Positions 35,855 through 64,000 of a stretch of 64,000 bases of DNA are shown here, in pieces; positions within the stretch are counted from its first letter, which is position 1, and each line of letters starts with the position of its first letter. This DNA is from Cycas panzhihuaensis. Taxonomy: Eukaryota > Plantae > Cycadophyta. The DNA is taken from contig CM041465.1 in NCBI GenBank assembly GCA_023213395.1, positions 58,969,741-59,033,740 of the forward strand, written 5' to 3'. The translations under genes and the position numbers were made by a program. The notes under the pieces are model-generated. The model was not told the origin of the DNA, made no database searches, and saw only the letters and a list, made by a program, of their open reading frames with translations.

Positions 35855-38800
35855 TGTTAACTTCACGAATAGAACAAACTAGAATATTGATGTAAAGATG
35901 ACTTGAATTATGGTGAGACAACGTATCCTTAAATATACATGGTTGAATACAGCCATCACAAAATGAATTGTAATCGACACTCCAGAACATGATACGTGTC
36001 AGGAATATAGAGAGAGTTACAAAGAAGGGTTTATAACACTACCCGTTTAATAACTAGGATAAAATATTATACTTTAACACCCTCTCTTAATGTTTTATCC
36101 TCTTTAGACCTATCTTATCTCTAAGAGTTTGAAATTTGTCTCTCCCAAGAGGCTTTGCTAATATATTTGCAACTTGTTCTGCTATGGGGCAGTATGTCAA
36201 ATCAATTTCTTTGTTATGAACCTTTTCTTTTATGAAATGGTGATATACTTCTGTATGCTTTGTCTTTGCATATAGAACTGAGTTTTTAGTCAGCTTGATT
36301 ATACTCTAATTGTTAGAGTTCAGAGTTGTTTTAGAAGAAAAGTATCATATACAATATCGGTAGGAACAAATTATTAAGCATTCACAGGAAGAAATTGACA
36401 TTGTACACGTACACATTTTTGGCAGGTGGAAAACCCCTTCTGGGGAAGAAAACCACCTCTGAAAGTATGAGTTTATTGGTTGAAATCTTTTACAAAGACT
36501 TGAAGATCAGACCTGACCAGAAATGCCCTCTACATACCAAACTAATGGTGAAAACCAACCTTCAGACAGGCTTATAATAGCCTCCTAGATTCTTGGAACA
36601 ACTCCTAGAATCTAGGAGAGGTTAATTAAACAATGAGAGATTTGTTGAAATGGTTAGTTGCTCATTTCAACGACCTTTATATAATAAATAATAATTAACA
36701 TTAATTTTATAAAATTAACTTTTACATAACTTAAATTTATATTTAGACATGTGATCAAAAAGTAACATTAGTTTTTCTAACATCCTCATTTAATGTTAAC
36801 TTTTTGTATAATAAAGACGATAAAGAAAGTCTTCATCATGTTGATTCCCTTTTGATAGAGATTTCTTTTATCTTTAGAAAATCTCACAAGTTTAGAAAAT
36901 TGACTTCAGTCAATAACTTGGTAAGAATATCAGCAACTTGTAAATCAATTTCATATAAAAGAGATTTGATCCATAGTGTTTATTTGCTTGCTTCAATGAG
37001 TGCTTGATATTTAGCTTCGGTTGTTGATAGAGCTAGCGCCTACAATTTTTTACTAGACCATGTGATAGTTGATGAATCTAGAAAAAAAACATAACCTGTT
37101 GTTGACTTACGATCATTTGTGTCGCCTACCCCATCTGAATTAGTATATCCTGTTATGGTTAGAGGATTATTGCAAGAATTATAAGTTAGGCCATAAAAAA
37201 TACTATTTTGAAGATATCGAAGAATACGTTTAGCAGCTTTCCAGTGTGATTCATATGGGTTTTGCATATAATGCAAATATAAAGCAATAGCATAAGATAT
37301 ATTTAGTCGAGTATGCATTAAATAAATAAAAGTCGATAAAATTTTTATATAAAGTTGGATCACACAGGGGTGTGGAACAGTTAGTAGATAATTTTATTCA
37401 TGATTGTAAAAGATTAGAAATCGGTTTAGTGTTTTTCATGTTAAATCGTTTTATTAGATCTAAAATATATTTTGGTTGAAATATAGTTATTTTTGAATTA
37501 TGTTAGTAAAATTGTCATCCGAAAAAATAGTGTAAAAGACCTAGATCGGTCATTTCCAATTTATTTATCAAGGTTGTTTTTAGTTAATGAATGTTATTGT
37601 TTGAAGATCCTGTGATGATGATATCATCAACATATAGAATTAATATAGTAATATTCCTATCTTCACATTTAAAATAGAGATTTAGATCATTGATACATCT
37701 AGTATATCCAATTTGAATTAAGTAATCATCAACTTTTGTATACTAAGTTCAAGGAGCTTGTTTCAATCCATAGATGGATTTTTTTAATTTATAAACTAAG
37801 TTAGGATTGTCAATAAAACTAGGAGGTTGAGTCATGTATATTTTTTCTTTGAGATCACCATTTAAAAAAGTGCTCTTAACATCCATTTGATGAATTTCTC
37901 AACCAAATTTGGCTGTTAGAGCAATAACAATTTTAATAGTATTCATCTTTGCAACAGGTGCGAAGGTTTCATTATAGTCTATACCATCGATTTGAGAGAA
38001 TCCTTTCGCAATTAGGTGAGCTTTGTATTTTTCAATAGTTCCTGATGAATTAAATTTGGTTTGATAAACTCATTTACAATCAACTAGATTTTTTGCTAGT
38101 GGAAGTGGAATAAGATACCAAGTTGAATTCTTATTTAAAGAATCAATTTCAACTTACATGACTTGCTGCCATATGGGATTGTTACTAGTTTGTTTAAATG
38201 TTTTAGGATTATCACTAGTCATTATTTTAGTCATTAGTACATAATTAGTTTATAATTTTTGAGAACATGTTCTCCTGATATCTGAAGGATTACCTATGTC
38301 AAATTCAATATCAGAAAGAGTTTTTTTTGCTCATACAGGCTGTTTGTTTGTGAGAGTTTCTATAGTCATAGGTTGATTAGGTTGAGTGGAAGGATCAATA
38401 ATAGTTGGTTTAGATAATGTCTAATTCTGGATTTACATAGATAGGGATTCTATCATTTCAAGGTCAGCTTATTTTTGAGAGGAGTAAACAAAATAGGTAT
38501 TGATTAACAGATTCTCAATAGGAAGTTCTACATAAGTAGAGGTTGAAGAGGATCATTCTTCATCAAATATTACATCATGCAAAATTGAGATTTTATACGT
38601 GACTGGATCTAAAAGTTTATAAGCTTTGCTCTGTTCGCTGTATCCAACGAAGATGTATTTTTGACTTTTAGGATCAAGTTTCTTGTATTTTTTTTTGAAA
38701 ACGTGTCCCCATGCAATATTTTCAAAGATTCTAAGATATTTAACTGAGAGATTTCGTCTAGACTATTTTTGTTCTGGCGTAACATTTTGTAAAGATTTAT

Positions 38801-41800
38801 TAGGTAATTGGTTTAAAAGATAGTTAAAGCAGAAAATTGCTTCTGTCCACAACTTTAAGTCAAGATTCTTTGCATGTAACATGCATCGAGTCATTTCGAC
38901 AAGAGTATGGTTCTTGCATTCAACAACACCATTTTATTGAGGAGTATAGGTAATAGAATGTTGAAATTAAATTTCGTGTCTCTTACAAAAAGAAGTAAAT
39001 TTGCCACTTAGGTACTCTTTGACATTATCAGATTTGAAAATTTTAATCTTTGGGTTTGATTGATTTTCAATAAGTGTTTTGAATTCATTGAAGATATCAA
39101 ACACTTGATTACGAGTCTTGAGTATGTACACCCCATATTTTCTCGAAAAATCATCAATAAAGGTGAAGAAATAATGACTGTCAAAGTAAGAAGTTACATG
39201 GAATGATCTACATATATTAGAGTGAACAAGTTCAAGTGGAACTTTTGTTCTAAATTATGTCTGATATGGAAAGGGATCTATGTGTTGCTTACATATTACG
39301 TAGGCTTCGCAAACACCATAAACAATATTTAGGGTAGAAAGACCATGAACCATATCATGTCTTTTTAGATATTGAAGTTTGTCATAATTAGTATGGCCAA
39401 ACCGTGCATGCTATAATTTACTGATTATGTCAGATTTGACTATAAAGGCATTAAAATATTTTGTTTTAGTATTTTGTAAATTAGTTAAGCTATAGAGACT
39501 TGTTTTATGATCAACATATCTAGAGGTAATAGATTTGAATTTGTTTAATGGTTCTTTAATAATAAATTTATCTTTCTAGAATTTGATAATAAGATCTTTC
39601 TAGCAGATTTGGTAAACAGAAAGAAGATTTGATAATAAATAAGGCACGTAGAAGACATCCTTAACTAAACCATCTTTCAGAGTGACATTACCTGATCCTT
39701 TTACTTTGAGTTGGAATCCACTCCCAAAAGAAATATCTTCTTCAAAGTTAGTATCAGATTGATAAGTGGATAAATTCTCCTGGTGTTCTGTTATGTGATG
39801 GGAAGCACTAGAGTTAAGAATCCATTATGGTGATATACTAGATGGAGCAATAAAGGCATAGGTAGAAGTAGTTAAAGAACGATTATATGATTGGGGTTAA
39901 GTTTGAATTCTTTTAGAATCTTTTCAAGTTTCTGAAGCTATTCTATTTCTACAGACATCAATGGCATGGCCTTTTTTGTGACAATAGGCACAACTGATGT
40001 TCTGTGAAGGATAAACGGTGTTCCGTTTTAGAAGAGACTATTTAGATGTATTCTGATATTTAGGTGGATTAGAGTACTTAGTGTTGTTTTGAGAACTAAA
40101 AGGTAGACCTCTATGAGGTTTCTAGAATTTTGGATTACTATTAAAGTTGTTCTGATGTTTAGTTTTATTTTGAGGCTTAGTTTTGGAAAAGAAAGCCTGA
40201 GAAGAATCTTTTAATTTACCTATTTAAATTAACATCGTTTGATGTTCTATCAGTTTGTTTGTCAATTAATTAAAAGTTATTAGAGGATTACCAACTTGTT
40301 GTCTAGCAGTATTGAAAAGATTAAAGTATTTTGGTAGTTTATTTATCGTAAGATGAATGAGCGTATCATCGTTTTTAGCATGTGTGACTATTTATTTTTT
40401 ATCACCTACTTTAATTATAATTTTAATACAGTTGCCTAGATCTTTATTGATTAGTTGAGTTTTAGATAAAAAGTCTTCAACTTTAAAAAAATCATCATAA
40501 TTAAGGTCATACAATTGTTGTTTTAGGACAATCAATTGTTGTGTGTCAACCTTATCATATTTCTCCTTAAGAGTATTCAAGACAATGGTTAGATCGTCTA
40601 AATTAGAGAACTGTCGATTGATTTATGGTAATAAAGATGTTAGGATGGTGTTTAGGGCTACATCAGAGTTCATAAGATATACCATATGGATTTCTGAAGT
40701 TGCATCTTTTGGTTTTTTGAATTCACCTATTATATATCGTCATATCTTCTGTTGTTTAAGCTAATAGGAAATGCGATTCTTCTAATCGGCATAGTTTGAA
40801 ATTTCATTTAATCTGGAATCGACGCAGTGGTTGTCCCTGGTATTAGTGCCATATTAGGAATTGAAAACGTTGATTAGAAGTTTGTTTGAGTCAAAAAATT
40901 TGGAGAATCTAGATGAAGAAGTGTAGGTGATAAAAGTCACATAAAAAATTACTAAACATCAAAGTAATCCTATTAACATTTCATTGATAATTAACATACA
41001 TATTTAATCGAATGACAAGAAATTGAAAATCATTATTATTTAAGTTTGTTTGGATATCCTTCTCCTAGAGAAAAAGAATTAAATATTCCCTTTTTCTAAA
41101 AAAACATGTTAATAGTCCCCCTTATTGTTTTAAAGAAATTGAAGAATAAGTTACTTGTTCAATTACAAGCAAAAGAGTTTGAGTGTTGAATTAAAAAAGG
41201 AGTTAAAAAAAAAGGGTTTTATTTGTTTTAATTGATCAATACATTAAGATAAGTAGAGAGTGTTAATCATTTTATAAATGAAATGTAATAAGGGGTTAAT
41301 CATTAATGAATTAAATAAATTAAATTAAAAAAAATATATAATTAAGAGATGACGGACTTGAACTAACTATTAATGAAATAAAATTATTTTTGTATTGGCA
41401 GAAACATTGAAATGTTTTAAATTTTATTTGGGGTGTGAGGGGGGGGAGGAAACCCTACTTGGTTCGCGTTCTTCAGATCAACAGAGGTAGCGGCGAGGGA
41501 TTTCGCTCTGCATTCTTCAACTCAATAGAGGCGTCTCTTCGGATCAGAGACGGAGGAGCAGCCAGAAGCAAAGCTCTTTAGTCATCGTATGACATGCATG
41601 GAAACCTGCCTTCACTGCAACAATTCAAGAGCTTGGACCATTCCATCCATCTCATGTTTGTTCCTTTAATAAATTCACCAAACCCTGCCCTTGGACCAGG
41701 TGCTTCTGTTCAATTTACCTTGCCATTGTCGGGGTTTATTCTTCACCTTGGGATGAGAATAGCCATTTTCTATCTCTCTTGGTGACGTACGTTTATTATC

Positions 41801-41836
41801 CTTCTATGTTTTGATATTTTCAACCCCTTTGCATCT

Positions 41837-42381
41837 GACTGGGGGTGGTGCAAACAAAAGCTTGGAGCAACTACAATATTAGCTATGTCCCTTGCCATTT
41901 GCAAAGTTGGAGCTTTTGTAAAGAAGATACCTCTTTATCAGCACATTACCAATCTTGATGGAAACAAATCATTAGTGATACTTATCCCTGCCTTCAATGT
42001 TATCAATGGAGGCTCACATGCAGGCAACAAACTTGCAATGCAGGAGTTCATAATTCTTCCTGTGGGGGTTTCTTCATTTAGAGAGGCCATGAAAATGGGT
42101 ACAGAAGTTTACCATTATTTGAAGGCTGTAAAGAAGAAATATGGTCATGATGCAACAAATATTGGAAATAAAGGAGGCTTTGCTCCTAATATTTAGGACA
42201 ATAAAGAAGGCCTTGAATTATTGAAGACTGCCACTGGCAAGGTTATTATTAGCACAGATGCTACAGCTTCTGAGTTTTATAGTAAGAAGGATCACCTATA
42301 TGATTTGAACTTCAAGGAGGAGAATAATGAAGGGAGCTAGAAGATATCAAGATCTGAGCTAATCAGGCTATATGAATCATT
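41837..42381 (+). pseudogene. ENO: Processed cytosolic enolase fragment, aa ~103-290
   Basis: [10 protein letters not shown]...[21 protein letters not shown]...[19 protein letters not shown]...ASEFY...[10 protein letters not shown]...LYES; plant-type WGWC insert; no introns; 2 stops, small in-frame deletions. Confidence 0.96.
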
Positions 42382-42429
42382 ATTAAAACATAGAGGCCGA
42401 ATCTCTGTGCACTTGATATCAAAGTGAAC

Positions 42430-42657
42430 ATGGAAACCATCGATTCAATTAAGGGCATAATAATTTTTGACAGTAGGGGTAATTCCACCATTGAAGTAGA
42501 TCTTTATCTTTCATACGGTACTCTTAGTAGAGCAGTTATTCCAAATGGTGCTTCAACTGGTGTGTATGAAGCATTAGAGTTGCATGATGGAGGAAAGGAC
42601 TATTTTGGAAAAGGTGTCACAAAGGCTATTAAAAATGTCAATTCAATCATTGAACCT
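42430..42657 (+). pseudogene. ENO: Processed cytosolic enolase fragment, aa 1-76, preceded by a probable 5'UTR (42382-42429)
   Basis: [23 protein letters not shown]...[39 protein letters not shown], colinear with the plant enolase N-terminus; intronless; runs into the PBS. Confidence 0.96.
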
Positions 42658-42670
42658 GGCTCTGATACCA
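42653..42670 (-). promoter_or_regulatory. 18-nt primer binding site for tRNA-iMet
   Basis: + strand AACCTGGCTCTGATACCA equals the 3' end of plant initiator tRNA-Met as I recall it; directly abuts the 5' LTR. Confidence 0.9.
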
Positions 42671-45438
42671 TGTAGAAGAAAGGTATTATGTACAATATCA
42701 ATAGGAACAAATTATTAAGCATTCATAGGAAGAAATTGACATTGTACACATATACATTTTCGGCAGGTGGAAAACCCCTTTTGGGAAAGAAAAACCGCCT
42801 ATGAAAGTATGAGTTTATTGGCCGAAATCTTTTACATAGACTTAAAGATTAGACCTGACCAGAAATACCCTCTATATACCAAGCTAATGGTGGAGACTAC
42901 CCTTCAGACAGGCTTATAACAACCTCCTAGATTCCTAGAGCAACTCCTAGAATCTAGGAAAGGCTAATTAAATAATGAGAGGTTTGTTGAAATGGGCAGT
43001 TGCTCATTTCAACAACCTTTATATAATAAATAATAATTAACATTAACTTTATAAAATGAACTTTTACATAACTTAAATTTATATTTAGACATGTGATCAA
43101 AAAGTAACATTAGCTTTTCTAACATTGTTGTATATTGTTGTTAGTCCAAGTCTGTTAGAAGTTGTCTCAACCATATTGCTTCACTTGCAGCACTTATTAC
43201 AAATTTGTATTCAGTTTCTGTTGATGATAACATAGTAGTGGTTTGTCTTTTACTGCTATAAGAGAATGTTGTTGACCCAAGAAAGAAGCAATAACCACTT
43301 GTGGACTTTATTTATTTTTTGTCTCTTGCTTAATCTGAGTTGTAGAACCCTTTCAATTTTGTTGATTTTTCTCTAGGGTATATTAATTTTAGATCAACTA
43401 TTCCCTTTCTATACCTTAGTATTCTTCTTGCAGCTTTTTAATGTTTTATTTTAGGTTCTTGCATGTTTCTTAAAACCAAACCTACTGAATATGATATGTT
43501 TAGTCTAGTTGTTGTGAGATAGATTAAGCTACTAATCAGTTACTTATACAGAGTTGCATTGGCCAAAGGTTCTTCTTCTTTTGTGACCAGGTTACAGTTT
43601 ACCTCAATGGGTGTTGCACATGGATTGTAATTTTCTATTTGAAATTTAATCAATAAGTCCTTGATGTACTTTCCTTGAGATAGGGTGATGGAGTCCTCTA
43701 GTTAGTTAACTTCCAATCCCAAATAATAACTTAGAAGACCCAAATTGGTCATTTCAAATTTTCTTTCTAGTTGTTTCTTTATGTTTTTGATTGATTCAAC
43801 ATTGCTCCTTGTGATTATCATGTCGTCTACATAAAGTACAACTATAGTGATCAACCTATTTCTTTTCTTTACATATAAGCTTGAGTCAAAGTCATAATGT
43901 CAAAAACCATTCTAACACAGATGCTTGTCTAATTTAGCATACCAAGTTTGAAGGGCCTATTTCAAACAATTTATAATCTTTTTCAATTTACAAACCAAGT
44001 ATTCTTATCCTTCCTTGATGCATCCTTCTAGTTGCATCATATACACTTCCTCATCTAGTTCTCCATTTAAGAATACACTTTTAACATCTAGATAAAAAAC
44101 TTTCCAATTTTATTGAGCTGTCAAGGTGACAACAATTGTCATTGTATTTAATTTTGTTATAAGAGAAAATGTTTCTTTGAAATCTACTCTAGATGTCTAG
44201 GTGTAGCCTTGGCAATAAGCTTGGCTTTGTATTTTTCAAATTTTCCATTGATTCCTTCTTTGATTTTATAAACCCATTTGCAGTTAACCACTAGTTTATT
44301 GGGAGGTGACTCAACTAATCCCCATGTTTGGTTCTTGGCAATTAATTACATTTTTGAATCCATTGTTGTTCTCCATTCTAGCTAATCTTTATTGTGTCTC
44401 AATATTGTTGTACAATGCCCAAGGTATTTAACTTCTAGTTCTGTACATAAATAAATATCCTTTTCCTTCTTCAATCATTTTGATATACCATCTTGGTACT
44501 TTCTTTTCCTCTCTTGGTTCTTCATCAGTGGCTGATTCTTCTTATGGTTGTTCCTCTTCTACTGAGATTGAATCTTCATGTGATACTAGTGAAGATTCTG
44601 ATGTTTGAGGGATCTCTTCTGGGGTAAGTTCTGATGCCTCTTCCATGATAATTTCTTGAGATGTTGCTTTTAATCCCTCTTCAATTTGTTTGAATTGAGG
44701 CTTGTTATCTAGAACATCTTCTTCATTAAACACAACATCTCTACTTACATAAGATCTTGTTAGTTTTTGGATTTATGCATTTATAAGTTTTTGAATTTTT
44801 GTTGTATCCTATTATGATACATTCTATACCTTTTACATCAAATTTTGATCTCCTTTTATTAGGAATATGGACAAATTCTTGACATCCAAATACATTTAAA
44901 ATGCTTACATCAGGTTTCTTACTTATCCAAGCTTCTTCCAGAGTGATTTGCTTTATTGCTTTTGTAGGACTTTGATTTATCAAATAATATGCAATGCTAA
45001 TTGCTTTTGCCCAGTAGGTTTTTAAAATGTATTTTTCAGAAACCATATCATGAGCCATTTTCATGATGGTTTTGTTCTTCCTTTTAGCAACCCCATTAGA
45101 CTAAGGGGTATAGGGAGTTGTGAAATGTCTACGTATTCCATTTATTTTACAAAAGTTCAAAAAATCTTCGATATGTATTCTTTACCACCATCTAACCTAA
45201 TGCACTTTATTTAAGCTTCAGATTTTAACTCTATTTCTGCTTTGAATTCTTTGAAGATTTTAAAGACTTTAGACTTATTATGGAGGAAGGACACCCATAT
45301 CTTTCGAGTGAAATCATCAATGAAAGTCAAAAAAATACCTGCATCTATTGATTGAGAATGGAGTAAGAGGGCTACATAAATTGGTATGAATTAACTCTAA
45401 CTTATTTTGGGCACACCAGCTGCTTTTCTTGAATGAAA

Positions 45439-48400
45439 TATTGAGAACCAATGTCCCAACCCTTTTGCTGCCACCAAGATCTAAACTATTCTTGTAACTA
45501 GTTACGAAAATTAAAACTAAAAATTACATGCAAGTTCTTAAACCAGAGATAAAACAAATAGACTGAATAAGAAATCCAAGTACATAAATACACCTGATAT
45601 AATGTGGTAAAACCCTAGCAGTGTGTTAGGAAAACATCCACATAGGAAATGTATCGATCTTTATTGTCACAGAATAGAGAAAATATACATAATCCTATAG
45701 CAGAGTGCTCATAGCAATAATAATCAGCTGCCCAACTCCTCACAGTATATTAAATAACCTCAACATAATGAAATATGTCCTAAATCGAGCTACATGAGAG
45801 AGTCATACAAGGCAAAAATCTGGACCGTAGAATCTAGGGTATTTTTATCGGATGACCTTGATTCTCTTTACAATTTAATATAGTTTTCAGTGTTAATTTT
45901 TCAGGTTGGGGGCTGTTGCCCTTGAACCCCTTCTTAGTGGGGTGCGTTCCACGTCCCCTGCACCCTCTGGGCCAAGGGGGGCTCCTGCCCCCCTTGGAAC
46001 CCTTTGAGAAAGGTTTGGGGGGGAAATTACGCTGCCAACATGCTAAAATTTAAGTCTCCAACCATTGTTGTCACATTACCTAATAATCTTCACTTTGATA
46101 ATAATTTACCTGGTACCTTTTCTGGACCCTTCATAATCTTTTCTCCAATCCAAGAGAAGTCAAACACCATTTAAACTTCTCTAATGGTACTAGTTTTGTG
46201 AACATATCAGTACAATTCTGTTTTGTATCAACCTTCTCAAGTGCCACTCCACCTGCTTCTACAACCTGTCTAACAAAATGGTACTTAAGAGCAATATGCT
46301 TTATTCTACTGTGATAAGCTAGATTTTTAGCTAAGTAAATAGTACTTTGACTATCACAAAATACCTTTACCTTTTCTTGTTTCCTTCCAAGCTCAACCAA
46401 TAGACCCTATAACCAGATTTCTTCTTTCCAAGCATGTGCTGCAGCAATATATTCAGCCTCTGTAGTTGATAATGTAATTGTGCTCTACAATTTTGACATC
46501 CAACTAATTAGACCATTTGCAAGAGTAAATACATAACCTGAAGTAGACTTTCTCTTATCTAAATCTCCTGCAAAGTCTGAATCAACATATCCACAGACTT
46601 GATTATTTGTACCTCTAAAGGTGATGCAATAGTCACTTGTGCCTCTTAAATACCGAAGCACCCATTTCACTGCTGTCCAATGTTCCTTTTCTGGATTTGC
46701 CATAAGCTTGCTAACTACACCGACTGCATGTGAAATGTTAAGTCTTGTACATACCATGGCATACATCAAACTTCCTACTGCACCGGCATAAGGCACATGA
46801 GACATATATTCCTTTTCTTCTTTATTATTAGGACTCGTACTCGAAGAAAACTTGAAATGGGAAACCAATGGGATACTCACTAATTTCACATTTGCCATAC
46901 TAAACCTGGTTAGTACCTTCTCTACATATTTCTACTGTGATAACCATAGCTTACCATTTTTCCTATCTCTGTGTATCTCCATACCTAAGATTTATTTTGT
47001 AGCTCTTAGATCCTTCATATCAGAAGTCCTAGCCAATTGAGTCTTTAACTTATTGATTTCTTCCATGCTCTTGCTTGCAACCAGCATGTCATCAACATAC
47101 AATACTAAGATAATCCATAAATTTAAAGTAAACACAATGATCATACTTACTTCTTTTGAAATTTTGGCTCTCTATGAAGGTATCAAACTTCTTGTACCAT
47201 TGCCTAGGAGATTGCTTTAGGCCATATAATGATTTTTTTAGCCCGCAAACAAGTTTTTTTCTAGCATCCTGTACAAACCCTTCTGGTTGGTCCATATAGA
47301 TCTCCTCATCTAAATCTCCATATTAAAAAGTTATTTTTATATCTAACTACTCCAACTCCAAATCAAGAGAAGCTACTAATGCTAATAGCACTCGAATTAA
47401 AACAAGTTTGATAACTGGTAAAAAGATCTCATGAAAGTCAATGGTTGCTTTCTGTGCAAAGCCTTTAGCCACTAGTCTTGCCCTGTATTTGTCAACCTTT
47501 CCATCAATATCTGTTTTCATCTTAAAAATCCACCTACAACCAATAGTCTTCCTACTATGTGGAAGTTCCACCAAGTCCTATGAATTATTTTTCTTCAATG
47601 CATTTATCTCTTTCTACATAGCCCTCTTCCACTTCTCACTATGGATATCATCTACTGTTTCTTGATAACATGTAGGCTCACCATCATTAGAAACCAAAGC
47701 AATAGAAGTAGACAGGCTGTACCTGTCAAGTGGATGACTAACTCGTGTAGATCTTTTAACTGTTGGCAGAGGAGTGTCCACATACTCATATAAATCTATT
47801 GTAGATTCATCTTCAGAAAGATCTTCCCGTTCTTCTGATTCCAAAGATGACTGGGTTTCAAATTTGACCCGTTGATGTTAATCTTTCTGCTCTTATTTCA
47901 CTTCAACTTCTACACTGTCTAATTTTAGAAGGGTGATTCATCAAATATAACATCTCTATTAATGGTGATTTTATGGGCAGTAGGATCCCACAACCTATAT
48001 CCCTTCACACCATCTTTATCACCATAACCAACAAAGATATATTTCTTAGATTTTGGGTCTAACTTTGAATATTTACTTGTATCAGTATGGACATAAGCAT
48101 CACAACCAAAAACTCTCAAATTTGAATAGTCACATAGATGTCCAGTCCATACCTCTTCAGGAATCTTGTAGTCTATTGCAAGTGATGGTGACCTATTTAC
48201 CAGATAGTAAGATGCTTGAATAGCTTCTGCCCACAAGCCTTGCTCCACCCTAGTATTACTTCGCATGCTTCTTGCTCTTTCCAAGAGTGTCTTATTTATG
48301 TGCTCAGCAATGCCATTTTGCTGTGGAGTATAGCTAATGGTCTTGTGTCTTTCGATCCCAGCTTCTCTATAATAGTTCTCAAACTCCAAGGAGTTGAACT

Positions 48401-51400
48401 CATCTCCATTGTCAGTTCTTAAACATTTGATTGACTTACTAGTGCTATTCTCAACTAGAGCCTTAAACTGCTAAAACACACTGAAAACTTTATATCTCCT
48501 TTCTGGAGTAATCATCTATAGTACAATGATCCTCCACAAGATATTTTAGGGGCTGGTCTCCACACATCTTAATGTATGTAATTCAGAACTCTTTTACTAG
48601 TGTGACTCCTTACTTTAAACCTAAGTCTACATTGTTTTCCAAAAACACAATGTTTACAAAAGCCAAATCTGAAAGTTGTAAGTCAGGAAGTAACTTACAG
48701 TTTATCAGCACCTTAAGTCCTCTCTCACTCATGTGCCCAAGTCTCTAATACCATAATTGAGCTGGATCTTCTGCAGTCTTTGATACTGTAGCTACTTAAC
48801 TGATATCTATACTTCCTACTATAATGTAAAGATTTTCTTTCTTTAAGGCTTTCATAACAACCAAGGTACCCTTTGACACCTTTAGGACTCCTTCATGACC
48901 TGTATACTTAAAACCACCCGAATGTAGTTCACCCAAGGAAATCAGATTCTTTTTCAGATTAGTTACATGTCTAACCTCAGTTAATGTTCTCACTACCCTA
49001 TCAAACACCTTAATTCTGATGCTACCAATGCCCACTGTCTTACAAGAAATTTCATTTCCCATAACTACATCACCACCATCAAGAGGTTGGTATGATGAGA
49101 ACCAACTCTTTGTGTAGACACGTGGTGCAAAGCACCTAAATCTAATAACTAGTCATGGTGATAATGAGAAATATTATAAGCAACTAAGACATCATCATCC
49201 ATACCTTGATTTGACTCCACCTGATTCACCTCCTTGGTAGGATCTTCCTTTTTCTGGAACTCCTTCCTTTTGTATCAATCCTTCTTGAGGTGACCGGTCT
49301 TATTATAGTGCCAACACCCAAGCTTACTCTTCTTGCCTTTTGATTTTGACCTTGATGTATCCTTGGAGATTTGTCTTCTATCAATTGTTCTACCCCTTGC
49401 TGTCATAGCTTCTGGTGTGGAGGTTTCAAGACTAGACTTCCTCTGCACTTCTTCCATCAGCAAAGCACTCACAATAGAATCATATTCTAATTCATCTATA
49501 GTGATAAAATTAATTGAGGTAACAATATTATCCCAGAATTCTGGTAATGAGGATAACAAGGTAACAACCTTGTCCTCATCCTCAATTTGATACTAGCCAA
49601 CTGACAAATAAGAGTATTGAAGACATTTAAATGGTCAGTAATTTTTGTATCTTCCTTCATGCATAATGAGTATAGCTGCCTCTTCAAGTAGATTCAATTC
49701 GTCACTGACTTGGTCATATACAGGCTTTCCAATCAAGTCCATAATCCTGCTATTATCTGCTCCACTGCGATGTTAAATAGAACTTCATCTGCTAAGCACA
49801 ATCGTATTATTCTAAGAGCCTTTTTGTCTAGATCATCTCATTCATCATTATCCATCCCTGTGGGTTTCTTCATTTTACCTACAAGAGCTCTGTACAAACC
49901 TTATTGTATAAGAATATCATACGCTTTCAGTTTTCACAACTCATTTCCACAACTCGAAGTTGTTCTTGCCATTGAATTTCTCTACCTCAAACTTTGCACT
50001 TGCTAGTTTCGCCATTTGGTGTAGAGAAAGCTGACACCAAAACCTTCACAAACTCACTGCAAAAATAAAAGTGGCTCTGATACCACTTCTTGAGAACCAA
50101 GGTCCCTACTATTTTGCCACCACCAAGATCTAAATTATTCTTGCAACTAGTTATAGAAATTGAAACTAAAAATTACATGCAAGTTCTTAAACTAGAGATA
50201 AAATAAATAGACTAAACAAGAAAGCCAAGCACACAAATACATCTGATATAACATGGTAAAACTCTAGCAATGTACTAGGGAAACATCCACACAGGAAAGG
50301 TATCAATCTTTATTATCACAGAATGGAGAAAATGTACATAATCCTATAGTAGAATGCTCACAACAACAACAATCAGCCACCCAACTCCTCATAGTATATT
50401 GAACAACCTCAACATAATGGAATATGCCCTAAATCAGGCTACATGAGAGAGTCATACAAGGCACAAATTTGGACCATAGAATCTAGGGTATTTTTATCAG
50501 ATGACCTTGATTCTCTTTACAATTTAATATAGTTTCCAGTGCTAATTTTTCAGGTCGGGGGCTATCGCCCCTGAACCCCCTCTTAGCGGGGGGCGTTCAA
50601 CGCCCCCAACACCCCCTGGCCAAGGGGGCCTTCCACCTCCCTTGGAACCCCCCGATAAAGGTTTGGGGGGGGGGGGGGGGGAACTGCACTACTAACATGC
50701 CAAAATTTAAGCCTCTAAGCATTGTTGTCACATTACCCAATAATCTCCACCTTGACAACAATTTACCTGTTACATTTTCTGGACCCTTCATCATCTTTTC
50801 TACAAGCCAAGAGAAGTCAAATACCATTTGAACTTCTCTAATGGTACTAGTTTTATGAATATATCAGCACAATTCTATTTTGTATCAACCTTCTCAAGTG
50901 CCACTCTACCTACTTGCATAACCTGTCTAACAAAATGGTACTTAAGAGCAATATGCTTTGTTTTACTGTGATAAGTTGGATTCTTGGCTAAGTAAATGGC
51001 ACTTTGACTGTCACAAAATACCTTTACCTTTTCTTGTTTCCTTCCAAGTTCAACCAATAGACCCTATAACCAGATTGTTTCTTTACAAGCATGTGTTGGA
51101 GTAATATATTCAGCTTCTGTAGTTGATAATACAATTATGCTCTACAATTTTGACATTTAACTAACTGGACCATTTACAAGAGTGAATACATAACTTAAAG
51201 TAGATCTTCTCTTATCTAAATCTCTTGCAAAGTCTAAATTAACATATCCATAAACATGATTATTTATACCTCCAAAGGTAATGCAATAGTCACTTGTGCC
51301 TCTCAAATACTGAAGTACCCATTTCATTGTTGCCCAATGTTCCTTTCTTGGATTTGCCATAAACCTGCTAACTACATTGACTGCATGTGAAATGTCAGGT

Positions 51401-54400
51401 CTTGTACATACCATGGCATACATCAAACTTCCTACTGCACTCGCATAAGGCACACGAGATATATAATCTTTTTCTTCTTCATTACTAGGACTTATACTTG
51501 AAGAAACGTTGAAATGGGAAGCCAATAGGATACTCACTAGTTTCACATTTTCCATACCAAACCTAGTTAGCATCTTCTCTACATATTTCTACTACGATAA
51601 CTATAGATTACCATTTTTTCTGTCTCTGTATATCTCCATATCTAAGATTTATTCTATAGCTCCTAGATCCTTCATATCAAAAGTCTTAGCCAATTGAGCC
51701 TTTAACTTATTGATTTCTTCCATGCTCTTACTTGAAACTAGCATGTTATCAACATACAATACCAAGATAATGAATAAGCCATTGTCCATAAATTTAAAGT
51801 AAACACAATGATCATACTCACTTCTTTTAAAATTTTGGCTCTCTATGAAACCATCAAACTTCTTGTACCATTGCCTGGGAGATTGCTTCAGGCCATACAA
51901 TGATTTCTTGAGCCTGCAAATAAGTCTTTTTCTGCCATCCTGTACAAACCCTTTTGGTTGATCCATATAGATCTCCTCATCTAAATCTCTATGTTGAAAA
52001 GTTATTTTTACATCTAATTACTCCAACTCCAAATCAAGAGAAGCTACCAATGCTAACATCACTCGAATTGAAACAAGTTTGACAACTAGTGAAAAGATCT
52101 CACAAAAGTCAATACCTGCTTTTTATACAAAACCTTTAGCCATGAGTCTTGCCTTGTATTTGTCAACCTTTCCATCAACATCTGTTTTCATCTTAAAAAC
52201 CCACCTGCAACGAATAGTCTTCTTGCCATGTGGAAGTTCTACTAGGTCCCATGAATTATTTTCTTCAATGCATCTAGAAATTCTACCAGGTCCCATGAAT
52301 TATTTTTCTTTAATGCATCTATCTCTTTCTGCATAGCCCTCTTCCACTTCTCACTATGGATATCATCTACTGCTTCTTGATAACATGTAGGCTCACCATT
52401 ATTAGAAACCAAAGCAGTAGAAGTAGACGGGTTGTACGTGTTAGGTGGATGACTAACTCGTGTAGATATTCTAACTATTGGTAGAGGAGTGTCCATATAC
52501 TCCTGTAAATCTGTTGTAAATTCATCTTTAGAAAGATCTTCCTGCTCTTCTAATTCTAAAGATGGTTGGGTTTCAAGCTTGACCTGTTGATGTTTATCTT
52601 TCTGCTCCTATTTCACTTCAACTTCTACACTGTCTGATTTTAAAAGGGGAGATTCATTAAATATAACATCTCTATTAATGGTGATTTTGTGGGTAGTAGG
52701 ATCCCATAACATGTATCCCTTCACATCATCTTTATCATCATAACCAACAAAGATATATTTCTTGGATTTTGGGTTTAATTTTGAATGTTTACTTTTATCA
52801 ATCTAGGCATAAGCATCACAACCAAAAACTCTCAAATTTAAATAGTCACATAGATGTCTAGTCCATACCTCTTCAGGAATCTTGTAGTTTATTACAAGTG
52901 ATGATGACCTGTTTACCAGATAGCAAGTTGTTTGAACAACTTCTGCCCACAAGCTCTACTCCACTCTAGCATTACTTAGCATTTTGCTGTGGAGTATAGC
53001 TAGTGGTCTTGTGTCTTTTGATCCCAGCTTCTCTTCAATAGTTTTCAAATTTTCAAGGAGTTGAACTCACTTCCATTGTTAGTTCTTAAACATTTGATTG
53101 ACTTACCAGTGTTGTTCTCAACTAGAGCTTTAAATTGATTAAACACACTGAAAACTTCAAATTTCCTTTTCAAAAAAATAGACCCATACCTTTCTGGAGT
53201 AGTCATCTATAAATATGATAAAGTATAATGATCTTCCATAAGATATTTTAGGGGTTGGTCCCCACACATCTTAATGTATGTAATCCAGAATACCTTTACT
53301 AGTGTGACTCCCTATTTTAAACCTGAGTTCTACATTATTTTCTAAAAACACAATGTTTACACAAAGCCAAATCTGAAAGTTGCAAGTCAGGAAGTAACTA
53401 ACGGTTTATTAACACCTTAAGTCCTCTCTCACTCATGTGCCCAAGTCTCTGATGCCATAATTGATCTGAATCTTCTGTAGTCTTTGATACTACAGTTGCT
53501 TGGCTGACATCTGTACTTCCCACTAAAATGTAAAGATTTCCTTTCTTTAAGGCTTTCATAATAACCAAGGTGCCCTTTGACACCTTTAGGACTCCTTCAT
53601 GACCTGTATACTTAAAACCACCTGAATCTAGTTCACCTAAGGAAATCAAATTCCTTTTCAGATTAGGTATATGTTTAACCTCAATTAATGTTCTCAGTAC
53701 CCCATCAAACATCTTAATTCTGATGCTACCAATGCCCACTATCTTATAAGAAATTTCATTTCTCATAAGCACATCACCACCATCAAGAGGTTGGTATGAT
53801 GAGAACCAACTCTTGTGTGGACCCATATGGTGCGAAGCACCTGAATCTAATAAGCAGTCATGGTGATAATGAGAAATATTATAAGCAACCAAGACATTAT
53901 CATCCATACCTTGATTTGACTCCACCTAATTCGCCTCCTTAGTAGGATCTTCCTTTTTCTGGAACTCTTTCCTTTTGTAGCAATCCTTCTTGAGGTGACC
54001 GATCTTATTATAGTGCCAACACCTAAGCTTACTCTTCTTGCCTTTTGACTTTGACCTTAATGTATCCTTAGAGCTTTGTCCTCTATCAATTGTTCTACCA
54101 CTTGCTGTCATAGCTTCTGGTGTGGAGGTTTCAAGACTAGACTTCCTTCGCACTTCTTCCATCAACAAAGCACTCATAACAGAATCATATTCTAATTCAT
54201 CTGTAGTGATAAAACTAATTGAGGTAACAATATTATCCCGGGATTCTGGTAATAAGCATAACAAGGTAACAGCCTTGTCCTCATCCTTAATTTTAATATC
54301 GATACTAGCCAACTGATAAATAAAAGTATTGAAAATATTTAAATGGTCAACAAATTTTGTACCTTCCTTCATCCGTAATGAGTATAACTACCTCTTCAAG

Positions 54401-56104
54401 TAGATTTAATTCATCACTGATTTGGTCATATACAGGCCTTCTAACTGAGTCCATAATCCTGCTGTTGTCTACTCTGCTGCGATGTTAAATAGAACTTCAT
54501 CTGCTAAGCATAATCGTATTGTGCTAAGAGATTTTTTATCTAGATCATCCCATTTGTCATCCTCCATCCCTACAGGTTTCTTCATTTTGCCTGCAAGAGC
54601 TCTGTACAAACCTTATTGTACATGAACATCATACGCTTTCAGTTTTCACAACTCATTTCCACAACTCGAAGTTGTTCTTGCCATTGAATTTCTCTACCTT
54701 AAACTTTGCACTTGCTAGTTTCGCCATTTGGTGTAGAGAAAGCTGACACCAAAACCTTCACAAACTCACTGCAAAAATAAAAGTGGCTCTAATACCACTT
54801 CTTGAGAACCAAGGTCCCAACCCTTTTGCTGCCACCAAGATCTAAACTATTCTTGCAACTACTTATAGAAATTGAAACTAAAAATTACATGTAAGTTCTT
54901 AAACCAGAGATAAAATAAATAGACTGAACAAGAAAGCCAAGCACACAAATACACTCGATATAATGTGGTAAAACCCTAGCAGTGTGCTAGGGAAACATCC
55001 ACACAGGAAAGGTATAGATCTTTATTATCATAAAATGGAGAAAATGTACATAATCCTGCAGTAGAGTGCTCACAGCAATAACAATCAGCCACCCAACTCC
55101 TCACAGCACATTGAACAACCTCAACATAATGAAATTTGCCCTAAAGTGGGCTACATGAAAGATTCATACAAGGCACAAATCTGGACCATAGAATCTAGGG
55201 TATTTTTATTAGACGACCTTGATTCTCTTTACAATTTAATATAGTTTTCAGTGCTAATTTTTTAGATCATGGGCTATCACTCCTGAACCCTATCTTAGTG
55301 GGGGGTGTTCCATGCCCCCTACACCCCCCTGGCTAAGGGGGGCTCCTGCCCCCCTTGGAACCTCCCAATAAAGGTTTGGGGGGGAAATCGTGCTGCTAAC
55401 ATACCAAAATTTAAGCCTCTAACCATTGTTGTCACATTACCCAATAATCTCCACCTTGACAATAATTTACCTAGTACCTTTCTTAGACCCTTCATCATCT
55501 TTTCTGCAAGCTAAGAGAAGTCAAACACCATTTAAACTTCTCTAATGGTACTAGTTTTATGAATATATTAGCATAATTCTATTTTGTATCAACCTTCTCA
55601 AGTGCCACTCCACCTGCTTCCACAACGTGTCTAACAAAATGGTACTTAAGAGCAATATGCTTTATTCTATTATGATAAGCTAGATTCTTGGCTAAGTATA
55701 TGGCACTTTGACTGTCACAAAATACCTTTACCTTTCCTGTTTCCTTCCAAACTCAACCAATAGACCCTGTAACCAGATTGCTTCTTTACAAGCATGTGCT
55801 GCAACAACATATTCAACTTCTGTAGTTGATAATATAATTGTGCTATGCAATTTTGACATCCAACTAATTGGACCATTTGCAATAGTGAATACATAACCTA
55901 AAGTAGATATTCTCTTATCTAAATCTCCTACAAAGTCTGAATCAACATATTTACAAACATGATTATTTGTACCTCCACACCTCCCGCACCCCTTGTGTTG
56001 GGGCTCCATACCTTGGAACCCCCTGAGAAAGGTTTGAGGGGAAAACTGCATTGCTAACATGCCAAAATTTAAGCCTTCAACCATTGTTGTCACATTAGCC
56101 GACA
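45439..56104 (-). mobile_element. Copia F (Tnt1/Tork-like) tandem array: two complete units plus one deleted unit, with shared LTRs
   Basis: LTRs 45439-46085, 50088-50742, 54800-55446 and a partial at ~55976-56104; PBS at 50073-50085 and 54785-54797; PPT complements at 46086, 50743, 55447; gag starts at 50015 and 54727 (MAKLASAKFEVEKFNGKNNFELWK); single TSD tgaaa (45434-45438 / 56105-56109). Confidence 0.93.
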
Positions 56105-58954: not shown

Positions 58955-59997
58955 GGGTGCTAAACCCTAAATCTTTTTATATTTTATATATATATTTTTT
59001 TAAAAGGGTACTTATATATATATATATATATATTAATATCTTGAGTACTAAGAATCTGTTTCTCAAACCACCTAAACCGTTGGAATCCTGACTCAGAGCC
59101 CCATCGTTTTGGTATATGATTTGATATATTTTGATACTATTTTCATAGAGAAATTTTAGTCTAAATTTGGGTCTTTGTGTTAGATCCCTCTTTGGTAACC
59201 AGATAAAATTTTCTTTTGCACCTTTCACATCATTCTCTTACCTATTCCTTGATCCTAGACTAATCGTTATATGAGACCTAGAAGGCTATTATAGACTATT
59301 TTAAGAAAATTTATTGTAATATATATATTTGGATCCTACAAAGGACTTGGAGGCAGAAGGAGGCCTTAAAATCAAGGACATGGTTTCTATTATCTTGTTG
59401 ACAGAGTTGTGTGATTATGTATTTGAGATGATTTTTGTTGCTCATTTGATAAGTATAAAGGAGGTATTGAATTTAAGAAGATAAGACATATAGATTGATA
59501 TGTGATGTATTACAAAAAGGGGCTTGTTTGGCAATAATGTATGCATGAGTTTAGTGTATGGTTATATGTGGACATGTAGATTGATATGTAATGCATTGCA
59601 AAAAGGGGCTTGTTTGACAATAATATATACATGAGTTTGGTGTATGGTGATATGTGTGGCATAAGTCATGTTTTGAGTATTAAGATGACCAAGTGAAGTG
59701 TGATGTGTATTAGTGATTTAATGGCAACATGAGGCATGCATGATCTTTGTGAGATGTATGTGGTATGTATGAGGCATTGAATTGATGGTGAAGCAAGTGT
59801 TTTAGATACTCTTTGTATGTGAGGGACATGAGATATAAGAGAGTTTGTTGAGTATGATTAATGGGCAAGTTACCAATGTTAGGTGAGGGAGATACACTTA
59901 CAATCATGAAGGAGAATGACGTGGTCATATATGCTCATGAAACAAATGAATATTACTTAATGGATTTGCATCTTCTGATACCTAAGTGTAATGGAGA
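57261..59997 (+). mobile_element. LTR element G, 5' part with a non-coding interior; interrupted by H
   Basis: Candidate LTR 57261-57515 (tgttgg...tcaaca) then PBS-like TGGTATCTGAG at 57516; D's gag stops abruptly at 57260; no gag/pol motif in the next 2.5 kb. Confidence 0.65.
59488..59660 (+). repeat. ~85-bp tandem duplication in element G
   Basis: catatagattgatatgtgatgtattacaaaaaggggcttgtttg... is repeated at ~59573. Confidence 0.85.
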
Positions 59998-62900
59998 TGT
60001 TGAAGAGAGGTAACATGCACAATATCTGTAGGATCAAATAACTATCCATACATAGGTACCAAAAGACATTACACATGTACACATTTTTGGTAGGTGGAAA
60101 ACCCCTTCTAGGGAAGAAAAACCACCTCTCTAATTTGAAAATCTATTAACTTTAAAAACTTTACATAAAACTTTAATATAAATACCCTCTACATATAGAA
60201 ATCAGCCTTAAGATAGGCTTATGATAGCCTCCTAGATTCCTAGGACCAATTCTTAGAATTTAGGAGAGGCTATTTGAAGAATGAGAGGTTCGTTGAAATG
60301 GGTAGTTGCTTCTTTCAATGACTTTCACATAATATTTAATAATTAACATTAGTTTTTATAAAAATAAAGCTTTACATCGCTTAAATTTATATTTACACGT
60401 GATAAAAAAGGATAACATTAGTTTTTTTAACATCCTCCTTTAATGTTAACTTTTTGTACAATGGTAAAGGAAGTCTTCATCATATTGATCTCCCTTTGAT
60501 GGAGACTTCTTTTATCTTTAGTAAATCTCACTGGTTTAGAAACTTGACTTCATTCAATGACTTAGTAAGGATATCAACAACCTGTAGATTTGTAGGACAA
60601 TAAGATAAATGAACAATATTGTTAGTAATAAGATTATAAATAAAATGTTGATGTAATTCTATGTGTTTAGTTCTATAATGAGCAATTAGATTTGTAGCAA
60701 TAGAAATATCACATTGATTACCAACTTTAATTTTTATAGAAGAGTTAGGAAAAAGACCAATTTTATTTAAGAGATATTTAATCTAGAGTGCTTCTTTACT
60801 TTGCTTTAACAAGTGCTCAATATTCAGCTTCGGTTGTTGATAGGGCTAAAATCTACTTTTTTTTACCAGACCATGTGATAGGTAAGGAATCTAGAAAAAA
60901 TATATAATTTACTATTAACTTATGGTCATTTGAGTCACCCGTCCAATCTAAATTAGTATACCCTATTAAGGTTAGAGGATTACTGCGAGAATTATAAATT
61001 AAATTATAAAAGATATTATTTTGAAGATATTGAAGAATACGTTTAGCAGCTTTTCAATATGATTCGTGTGGATTTTGCATATAACACAAATATAAAGCAA
61101 CATTATAGGATATATCAGGTCAAGTATGTGTTAAATAAATAAGGTTGCCAATAAGCTGGCTATATAAAATTGGATCACACAAGGGTGTGGAACAATCAGT
61201 AGATAATTTTATTCTTGATTGTAAAGGATTAGAAATAGGTTTAGCATTTTTTATGTTAAACCGTTTAATTAGATCTAAAATATATTTTGGTTATGATATA
61301 GTTATTTTTGAATTATGTTGATAAATTTGTAATCTAAGAAAAGAATGTAAGAAACCTAGATCAGTTATTTTGAATTTAGTCATCAAGGTTGTTTTTAGTT
61401 GATGAATGTTGTTGTTTGAAGATCTGGTGATGATGATATCATCGACATACAAAATTAATATGGTAAGATTCTTATTTTCATATTTGAAATACAAATTTGG
61501 ATCACTGATATATCTAGTTTGAATTAGGTAGTCATCAACTTTCGTATACCAAGCTCGAGGAGCTTGTTTCAATCCATAGATTGATTTATTTAATTTACAA
61601 ACTAAATTAGGGTTGCCAATAAAATCAGCCGGTTAAGTCATGTAGATCTTTTCTTTAAGATCAGCATTTAGAAATGCACTTTTGACATCTATTTATTAGA
61701 TTTCTCAATTGAATTTAGCTACTAGAGCAATAATAGTTTTAATAGTATTCATCTTTGCAATAGCGGTAAAGGTTTTATTATAGTCTACACCATCAATTTA
61801 AGAAAATCTTCTCACAATTAGGCGAGCTTAAAACTTTTCAATAGCGCCTGTTGAATTGTATTTGGTTCTATAAACCCATTTACAATCAACTATGTTTTTC
61901 TTTGGTAGAAATGGAACAAGATCCCAAGTTAAATTCTTGTTTAAGGCATCAATTTAAATTTGCATGGCTTGTTGCTACAAGGGATTGTTACTTGCTTGTT
62001 TAAAGGTTTTAGGATCATTACTGACTATTATTTTTTCCATTAATGCATAGTTAACATGTAATTTTTGAGTGCAAGTTCTCTTGGTATATGAAGGATTGTC
62101 TACATCAGATCCAATGTTGGATAGTATTTTCTTTATCCATAGGGGCTATTTATTTGTGACTATTTCTATAGTCTTGGGTTGAGATGGAGAACTAGCTTGA
62201 GAAGAAAGATTTATTGCGGTTAGTTCAAATAGAGTCCAATTCTGGACTTGTGTGGATAAAGATTCTATAGTCTCAAGGTCAACTTATTTTTTAGAGGAGT
62301 AAACCAAATAGGTGTTAGTTAACAGATTCTTAATAGGAAGTTCTACATAAGTGGAGGTTGAAGAGGATCCTTCTTTGTCAAATATTATATCATGCAAAAT
62401 TGATATTTTATGCGTGATTGGATCTAAAAGTCTATAAGCTTTGCTCTCTTTACTGTATCCAACGAAGATTTATTTTTAACTTTTAGGATCTAGTTTCTTA
62501 CATTTTTCTTTAGGAACATGTCCCCACACAGTACTTCTAAAAATTCTCAGATGTTTAACTGAGGGTTTTTGTTTAAACCGTTTTTGTTCTTGGGCAACGT
62601 TTTGTAAATATTTACTAGGTAAATGGTTTAAAAGATAGTTGGAGCAGGCAATTACTTCTGCCCACAACTTTAAGTCAAGACTCTTTGCATGTAACATGCA
62701 TCGAGTCATTTCAATAAGAGTACAGTTCTTGGATTTAGTAACACTATTTTGCTGAAGAGTATAGGCAATAAAATGCTGAAATTAAATTTTGTGCCTCTTA
62801 TAGAAGGAAGTGAATTTGTTACTTAAGTATTCTTTGGTATTATCATATTTAAAAATTTTAATTTTTAAGTTTGATTAATTTTCTACAAGTGTTTTGAATT

Positions 62901-64000
62901 CAGTAAAGATATCAAACACTTGATTATGAGTCTTGAGTGTGTACACCCAATATTTTTTAAAAAAATTATCAATAAATGTGATAAAATAATGACAGCCAGA
63001 ATATGAAGTTACATGGAACGGTCCACATATATCAGAGTGAACAAGTTCAAGTGGAACTTTTACTTTGAATTGAGTCTAATATGGAAAGGGATCCATGCGT
63101 TGCTTACCTGTTATGCAGGCTTTACAAACACCATAGACAATAGTTAAAGGTGGGAGACCATGAATCATGTCATGTCTTTTTAGGTACTGAAGTTTGCCAT
63201 AACTAGTATGGCTGAATCGTGCATGCCATAGTTTATTGATTGGGTCAGATTTGGATATAAAGGTACTAAGGATTTTGTTTTAGTATTTTGTAAACTAGTT
63301 AAACTATGAAAACTTGTTTTATGATCAACAGGTCCATAGGCAATAAATTTGAATTTATTTAATGGTTCTTTAATAATAAATTGATCTTTCCAGAATTCAA
63401 TAACAAGGTCTTTCTGATTGATTTAGTAGATAGAAAGAAGATTTGGTAACAAATCAGGCACATAGAATACATCCTTGATTAAACCATCTTTCAAAGTGAC
63501 ATCACCTGATCCTTTCACTTTGAGTTAGGATCCACTTCCAAAAGAAATCTCTTCTTCAGAGTTAGTATCGGGTTGATAAGTAGATAAATTCTCCTAGTGT
63601 TTTGTTATGTGATGGGAAGCACCAGAGTCAAGAATTCATTGAGGTGATTGATTAGATGGAGCAACAAATGCAGAAGTTGTTACCATTAAAGAACAATTAT
63701 GAGATTGTGGTCGAGTTTATGGTCAGGATTGTGGTTGGGTTTGCAATCCCTTGGAAGCTTTCCAAGATTCTAAAGTTATTCTACTTTTGCAGACATCAAT
63801 AGTGTTGTCCTTTTTACGATAGTGGGCACAACTAATGTTCTGAGAAGGATTAACAGTGTTCTGATTTGAAAGAGACTAAATGGAAGTATTCTGATATTTA
63901 GGTGGACCAGAATACTTAGTATTATTTCGAGAACTAGGAGGTGGACCTCTATGAGGTTTTTAAAATTTTGGTTTACTATTAAAGTTGTTCTGATGTTTAG
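59998..64000 (-). mobile_element. Copia H (family A, close relative of E), truncated by the window end
   Basis: 3' LTR 59998-60432 similar to E's LTR; PPT complement tcctccttta; RH, RT (KQAPRAWY, LYVDD), INT, protease ILDSGASHH ~63610, zinc knuckle ~63800. Confidence 0.95.

Follow-up and report, generated by a model that had tools for sequence, protein, structure and literature searches.

How does the mRNA of a host housekeeping gene come to lie, spliced and in reverse orientation, directly against the primer-binding site (PBS) of a retrotransposon? The locus that raises this question is in a 64,000-nt stretch of Cycas panzhihuaensis DNA (the window, to which all coordinates refer), in which a degenerate Copia retrotransposon on the minus strand carries enolase sequence. 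That this is a real natural chimera, with pieces of spliced enolase mRNA lying antisense to the element and flush with its PBS, is well supported. We think it probable, short of confidently so, that the cargo arose through the pairing of plus-strand strong-stop DNA with a co-packaged enolase mRNA, followed by extension with jumps between templates. This origin, put forward in the original prediction, fits both the likeness of the enolase mRNA to the tRNA tail and the polarity of the cargo, although the sequence taken by itself does not separate it from mis-priming or from capture at the DNA level.

Architecture of the enolase-carrying element

The element is bounded by two long terminal repeats (LTRs), which had been predicted as a pair and were located by self-BLAST and global alignment: a 5' LTR at 42671–43124 (minus strand; 454 nt, TG...CA) and a 3' LTR at 36331–36782 (minus strand) whose terminal CA is damaged. 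The two differ by 35 transitions and 5 transversions over 452 aligned columns, giving a K2P distance of 0.096. Comparison of the flanks identifies the target-site duplication TTGTT at 36326–36330 on the left and 43125–43129 on the right; the prediction that it is perfect holds in that TTGTT is present on both flanks, but only if one base is assumed to have gone from the terminal CA of the 3' LTR. A degenerate Copia gag-pol with many stops (36800–40796, minus strand) contains the Pfam domains Retrotran_gag_2, Pol_BBD, gag_pre-integrs, rve, SH3_retrovirus and RVT_2. Their order on the minus strand is gag, a protease-type barrel, integrase and reverse transcriptase (RVT_2 family), and the position of integrase before reverse transcriptase identifies the element as Copia; the features of Ty1/Copia membership that are present are thus the LTR pair, the PBS, the target-site duplication and the domain order. 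Upstream of gag an AT-rich leader is recognised from its composition (40800–41446, minus strand), and an 18-nt PBS (42653–42670, minus strand; from the sequence and self-BLAST) follows the LTR with zero spacer. This 18-mer, AACCTGGCTCTGATACCA, directly abuts the 5' LTR, and we take it to be the complement of the plant initiator tRNA 3' end. A tRNA scan found 0 tRNA genes within the 64-kb window, and there is no tRNA among the 4 weak matches of an Rfam scan.

Other Copia elements share the window. A head-to-tail array of another Copia family occupies 45441–55977, with a period of about 4.7 kb and 86–92% identity between units; 16 of 18 positions of its PBS (50085) agree with the 18-mer. A second copy of the enolase element's own family lies at 59997–64000 and is 81% identical over 3.2 kb (60758–64000), the window ending before its leader. 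A sister Copia at 11052–17835 (plus strand; LTR K2P 0.113) has a leader of the same build: first a PBS-like site (11451), then some 940 nt that are moderately GC-rich, a poly-C run close to 12390 and an AT-rich stretch, with gag after these. Read in the sense of its element, this poly-C run matches the plus-strand G-run of the enolase element at 41439–41446, and the stretch of about 940 nt is unrelated to the enolase element's leader. A weak DAD-family match on the antisense strand of the sister leader (E 0.0012) fell under the cut-off and was rejected; a solved-structure match to it was not obtained.

The captured transcripts

Enolase is encoded on the plus strand (Pfam Enolase_N and Enolase_C; tblastn) and gag-pol on the minus strand, so that the enolase is, as predicted, antisense to the element. 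We compared the region with four public sequence runs from relatives, three of DNA (X1, X2 and X4) and one of RNA type (X24, its RNA label being a guess). None of the four is from the host itself, since the best share of words is 0.28; the runs are used here as relatives' sequence, and intron positions are taken from other plants. A look-up of RNA data sets containing the stretch itself listed none, which has no bearing on its expression.

The enolase had been described as about 820 bp of intronless sequence. Intronless it is, but it is not one stretch of mRNA: relatives' contigs, tblastn and Pfam resolve it into two pieces in permuted order. Piece A (41836–42378, plus strand) comes first and holds codons ~102–290 in spliced form; it is followed by piece B (42379–42658, plus strand), which holds about 50 nt of 5'UTR, an ATG at 42430 and codons 1–76 and which shares 42653–42658 with the PBS. 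The 76 mRNA letters that separate codons 76 and 102 are missing. Against the closest named enolase, tblastn places codons 104–301 at 41840–42412 and codons 1–77 at 42430–42660; the best enolase matches are 81–82% identical, including Picea and a Ginkgo-style gene name, and many angiosperms are at 79–81%, which makes this a weak pointer to a gymnosperm host. A single 1453-nt contig of X24 covers 42496–42658 and then, 76 letters on, 41836–42378, with 9 and 43 differences respectively, and relative to it piece A lacks 18 nt behind 42231 and 3 nt behind 42128. Neighbouring X24 contigs span the start codon, and the loose end of one of them (record 20) resembles window positions 42382–42411 by eye. 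We assign the 5'UTR of about 50 nt to piece B on the basis of this likeness, noting that the end of a contig cannot show a cap. The cargo is decaying and is most likely without protein function.

No introns are present inside either piece, as judged by tblastn, the relatives' contigs and comparison with plant loci. For this comparison 99 loci with plant-type enolase were fetched by a pattern scan that required a splice donor and so favours intron-bearing genes. In genomic loci among these, for example L053, the protein alignment breaks near codons 23, 44, 65, 81, 111, 137, 171, 198, 223, 246, 271 and 336; three of these positions (23, 44 and 65) are crossed uninterrupted by piece B and seven (111, 137, 171, 198, 223, 246 and 271) by piece A. 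About 10 intron positions of other plants are thus crossed without introns, in agreement with the prediction that the fragments cross exon junctions and derive from mRNA. An intronless parental gene had been named as a sign against that derivation, and it is not what the fetched loci of other plants indicate, since these are split by introns at positions that the cargo crosses.

Spliced sequence would equally be expected if a LINE had later driven the insertion of an enolase cDNA that landed at the PBS by chance, and the available text of PMC2104539 describes LINE machinery as making chimeric retrocopies. However, the cargo has no run of A or T longer than 5, and near the two enolase ends we found no direct repeats of at least 6 letters that flank them, so that the poly(A) and separate target-site duplication that would have pointed to such an event are both absent. 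The 3' third of enolase and the mRNA 3' end are likewise absent from the cargo (tblastn), and the likeness at the PBS junction described below has a chance of about 2e-5 per site. A LINE-made processed pseudogene is therefore disfavoured, and we regard it as extremely improbable.

The permuted order raises the possibility that a circular enolase RNA served as template and was read for nearly a full turn, beginning at the tRNA-like stretch of the junction, and the passage from codon 290 into 5'UTR with only 76 letters missing fits one such turn. Codon 290, however, is mid-exon in plant loci (from ~271 to 336) and is not a splice donor, and a back-splice into the first exon would need a 5'UTR acceptor, of which none is seen. 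Since no end of the cargo (codons 76, 102 and 290) falls on an alignment break in the plant loci, and the permutation joint is thus off their exon boundaries, a back-spliced circle is disfavoured; a circle would moreover alter the template and not the step at the PBS. We consider such a template highly improbable.

The cargo is longer than first described, as a second host transcript adjoins the enolase. Positions 41540–41847 correspond to 308 nt of a 2978-nt X24 contig, with 30 differences, and overlap enolase piece A by 12 nt (41836–41847). In the RNA-type version of this sequence one plus-strand frame is open for 81 codons and is followed by a stop and T-rich sequence, as at the beginning of a 3'UTR, whereas at least 2 stops are kept in each minus-strand frame (in a frame test that used 23 of the 30 differences). 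This contrast favours the plus strand, and the second transcript is likely to be antisense to the element too. No Pfam family was found in its 6 frames, and no homologue for two of its plus-strand frames in protein collections; 5 representative protein matches are multi-stretch repeats that we judged spurious. The next ~90 nt (41447–41539), beside the G-run at 41439–41446, are either native leader or a third host piece. There is no RNA match for 41447–41539, with X24 cover missing at 41453–41503, yet DNA contigs bridge the region. At the low end of the GC-rich cargo zone, positions 41439–41458 comprise the plus-strand G-run and then the telobox-like motif AAACCCTA. This zone may be the point of return to the element.

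The primer-binding site junction

An 18-nt tRNA-end sequence was said to join the enolase cleanly. The last 6 letters of the PBS also align to enolase, however, and the junction is an overlap rather than a clean butt joint. The alignment of the RNA-type enolase contig extends into the PBS as far as 42658, after which the loose end of the contig reads CTCTGATTGG; in a narrow-stretch alignment the loose end past 42658 begins CTCTGATTGGCAAG. Where the RNA has ACCTG and then CTCTGAT, the window has ACCTG, G and CTCTGAT, the PBS strand being ACCTGGCTCTGAT. The predicted mimicry of the tRNA tail by the parental enolase is therefore visible in the RNA-type contig, with 12 matches over the first 14 PBS-strand positions and one gap. 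This score was reached at 52 of 3,000,000 random sites of the cargo's composition, and the chance is thus about 2e-5 for a given junction and about 2.5% over the whole 1453-nt mRNA, for a score that was defined after the match had been seen.

The peptide PALI favours this likeness, but codon choice matters: the motif occurs in 68 of the 99 loci in 22 distinct codon forms, 1 of which scores 12 and 4 of which score 11. With RNA parameters, the duplex between the PBS 18-mer and a natural stand-in that shares the 12 letters of the contig is at −17.5 kcal/mol; no window is as low among 779 from the cargo (minimum −14.6) or among 6487 from the background (minimum −17.1). The true acceptor duplex is at −33.3 kcal/mol, and the much weaker enolase duplex counts against plus-strand mis-transfer. 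The enolase contig has 2 differences in 42596–42658, of which 42631 is listed; the second is probably 42653, where the parental letter would differ from that of the window. We infer this because the window codes Glu at that point and 0 of the 100 enolases counted (120 fetched) do so. The junction pattern was not found in a metagenome collection.

The events that we favour begin with a tRNA-tail-like stretch that is observed in enolase codons 76–80, where the cargo starts. The 3' end of strong-stop DNA (U3-R-U5 and the tRNA copy) would have paired with this mimic instead of with minus-strand DNA, and reverse transcriptase would have copied the mRNA back into the 5'UTR to generate piece B. A jump at or near the mRNA 5' end to codon 290 of enolase mRNA, with copying back to codon 102, would then have generated piece A; a jump of this kind explains the permuted order without a circular RNA. 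The 12-nt overlap with the second host sequence is observed, and the growing strand may have exited through it by another jump before it finally went back, within the leader, to minus-strand DNA of the element. An antisense second piece would represent a third plus-strand jump; a sense one would mark where the plus strand met a minus strand that had strayed onto a host mRNA and therefore lacked a PBS copy. Two of the switch points have microsimilarity, 12 of 14 positions at the PBS joint and the 12-nt overlap between enolase and the second transcript. Antisense polarity is to be expected under this scheme, since backward copying of the mRNA from the mimic gives DNA that runs away from the PBS in the direction of the element's plus strand. 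If strong-stop DNA was extended on the mRNA in this way, the polarity, position and spliced state of the cargo are accounted for and, with further jumps, its permutation too.

The same polarity and position would arise by mis-priming, if a 5' piece of the enolase mRNA with the mimic at its end had replaced the tRNA at the PBS, had primed the minus strand and had then, in plus-strand synthesis, been copied as far as its 5' end. The fragment would carry no modified-base stop, and the PBS would be restored afterwards by the true tRNA. The mimic is on the same strand as the tRNA, and priming by such a fragment accounts for the extent of piece B, from the PBS into the 5'UTR. On the other hand it requires that the mRNA was cleaved precisely at the mimic and was left with a free 3'-OH there, and piece A still requires a plus-strand jump. 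The first product of mis-priming would also be an enolase-form PBS that is one letter shorter, but among the DNA contigs listed 0 have a gap at 42658/42659 or another letter at 42653, noting that a contig missing from such a list is not proof of absence. Taken together, we find mis-priming decidedly improbable.

Plus-strand mis-transfer also bears on how the length of the PBS is understood, as 18 nt had been proposed to be the fossil of a reverse transcriptase stop at m1A58. A ribosyl-phosphate at position 64 is present in plants, and the Ty1 reverse transcriptase stops at 12 nt. In the available portions of the sources, this modification is described for initiator tRNA (PMC7694415), and the stop at m1A58 that gives 18 nt is shown for retroviral reverse transcriptases (PMC8599865). 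The commonest exit point of LTR-sharing contigs is the 12-nt boundary at 42659 (21, 14 and 24 contigs in X1, X2 and X4 respectively), which would be expected if plant initiator tRNA halts reverse transcriptase at position 64. Three X2 contigs depart from the window at 42653 and go on in different letters, which suggests that an 18-nt PBS exists without enolase. In the sister element 14 of 18 letters of the PBS region are alike and are followed by CAA, as in the enolase element. The native PBS-side sequence may consequently have matched enolase further, and a native match of 18 nt or more may predate the capture. Because a tRNA can rewrite the PBS in each round and the 12-nt boundary is the commonest, the 18-nt end is not independent proof; a stop at m1A58 is compatible with the model but, with position 64 also to be considered, not proven by it. 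In one LTR-sharing X24 contig the 12-nt PBS is followed at 42659 by three other letters, after which the letters of positions 12–18 of the PBS recur, and this loose end hints, by analogy, at extended tRNA pairing boxes like those of Ty1 (PMC5454406, in the part available).

Amplification in relatives and comparison with known captures

The relatives' DNA runs indicate that the chimera did not remain a single copy. With a joint counted as bridged when 31 letters on each side are covered, the PBS joint is bridged by 6 of the 24 DNA records listed (4 from X1, 1 from X2 and 1 from X4), and of another 24 listed for the cargo region as a whole 4 bridge the A/B joint, 3 the joint of enolase and the second transcript and 5 that at 41540. 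Within a single run one joint is covered by several contigs with 5–16 letters in 100 unlike the window, and such divergence, up to 16 in 100, is a sign of paralogous copies. The RNA-type contig has the 18 letters that are missing behind 42231, and 0 of the DNA contigs listed have them. As diverged contigs in the DNA runs of three relatives bridge every joint, we conclude that the cargo has been amplified; these contigs, which are short and represent only parts of elements, support further rounds of retroposition of the chimera. This corresponds to the last step of the favoured scheme, in which the chimeric leader is copied into several further elements, as seen in the relatives. The simplest reading would be a single capture older than the split of the three species labels, followed by further transposition.

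One contig of X1 (record 7) is intronless enolase-like DNA that is 85% alike and continues past 42657, and it raises the prospect that other processed enolase copies may exist. It is consistent with an alternative in which the donor was a pre-existing cDNA or processed pseudogene, captured either as a DNA-repair patch in the leader guided by the PBS likeness or through a minus-strand switch onto an antisense transcript of the retrocopy with a return to the element at the PBS. The antisense polarity would then have arisen by chance and the position by homology. Capture of gene fragments by transposable elements, whether RNA- or DNA-mediated, is described as very common in gymnosperms in the available text of PMC13477047, and short overlaps at joints also mark microhomology repair. 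Such a donor must, however, have been already permuted and fused to the second transcript, or else three separate patches are needed. Moreover, the 5'UTR of piece B nearly reaches the end of the RNA-type contig, as is typical of reverse transcriptase run-off, the cargo has neither poly(A) nor the 3' part of enolase, and the rest of the window contains no further copy of the cargo. We regard capture from a retrocopy as unlikely.

Returning to plus-strand mis-transfer, we propose only tentatively that it represents a second, plus-strand route of capture in plant LTR retrotransposons, in which tRNA-ended strong-stop DNA finds mimic mRNAs and writes them antisense into the leader by serial jumps, and the product replicates. 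A point against mis-transfer is that one capture event only is seen, with no recurrence. The unrelated stretch in the sister leader may be another, older cargo, and the leader slot between the PBS and the poly-C run may have received cargo repeatedly in this lineage. Models of LTR capture assume switching in first-strand synthesis and hence cargo in sense, and the antisense case gives a searchable signature of a second route. This signature, an antisense, PBS-adjacent insert that starts at a mimic, could be counted in the very large gymnosperm sets of captured fragments (PMC13477047, from the text available). If the route is real, the subfamily would be its natural heritable fossil, the reverse transcriptase stop on plant initiator tRNA would be fixed at 18 nt for this lineage, and every transcript of the element would be a natural antisense RNA to a glycolytic gene. 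The case thus bears on whether plant Copia reverse transcriptases stop at 12 or 18 nt on initiator tRNA, and the amplified element is predicted to give rise to antisense RNA and small RNAs directed at a housekeeping gene.

Comparable events have been reported in retroviruses. Dunn, Olsen and Swanstrom reportedly found in 1992 that unintegrated DNA of avian retroviruses can carry inserts from the cell next to a misplaced PBS, and Pulsinelli and Temin are said to have described strand-transfer errors in retroviral vectors in 1991. In the retroviral cases host sequence is reportedly joined to a misplaced copy of the PBS or to U5, and this is ascribed to errors around plus-strand transfer. The feature of aberrant plus-strand transfer that we observe in the enolase element is an antisense host sequence starting at the end of the tRNA-copied segment. 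The retroviral inserts are one-cycle laboratory products of vertebrate retroviruses, whereas the enolase case is a heritable, amplified plant Copia subfamily in which the parental mimic is visible.

Retroviral patch repair (Telesnitsky and Wolin 2016, PMC4997597) is similar in that co-packaged host RNAs with fortuitous microhomology splint the junction, but in the text available that source covers RNA-to-RNA switching generally, with 0 occurrences of 'antisense', and the enolase cargo is antisense. Antisense sequence in many copies of a family is also known from the antisense additional ORFs of Vicient and Casacuberta 2020 (PMC7264820). As far as the accessible part of that paper describes them, these are mostly in the interval between pol and the 3' LTR, conserved and without host homologues, whereas the enolase cargo is a recognisable, decaying host mRNA at the PBS.

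LTR-mediated gene capture is known, and the antisense, PBS-anchored form is one that we have not previously found described. Full-text searches of the literature, in which older virology is thinly covered, gave no description of an antisense mRNA anchored at the PBS via a tRNA-tail mimic, and antisense capture at the PBS is not described in the available portions of PMC3187697, PMC12786077, PMC5454406 and PMC3726574. The words 'antisense', 'orientation' and 'primer binding' are absent from the main text of PMC13477047, and the terms 'PBS', 'plus-strand' and 'orientation' from that of PMC5131818.

Spliced host pieces in LTR elements, with microsimilarity at their joints, are established (PMC5131818, in the portion available), and transduced genes mostly share the orientation of gag-pol (PMC7264820, likewise). 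The retrocopies of Tan et al. 2016 (PMC5131818) resemble the enolase element in having partial spliced mRNA in an LTR element, short overlaps at the joints, several parents and amplification. Of the characteristics of this type we observe the intronless partial mRNA, the microsimilarity and the amplification, and not cargo in sense. The model given in the available text of that paper is a switch from element RNA to mRNA in first-strand synthesis, with cargo in sense that usually replaces part of the ORFs; the enolase cargo, in contrast, is antisense and begins right at the PBS, in an element that has retained gag-pol. Maize Bs1 (Elrouby and Bureau, as presented in the accessible parts of PMC5131818 and PMC7264820) is likewise a plant LTR element with several spliced pieces of host genes. 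Bs1, however, is a chimeric gene, whereas the enolase cargo is decayed, located in the leader and anchored on a mimic of the tRNA tail.
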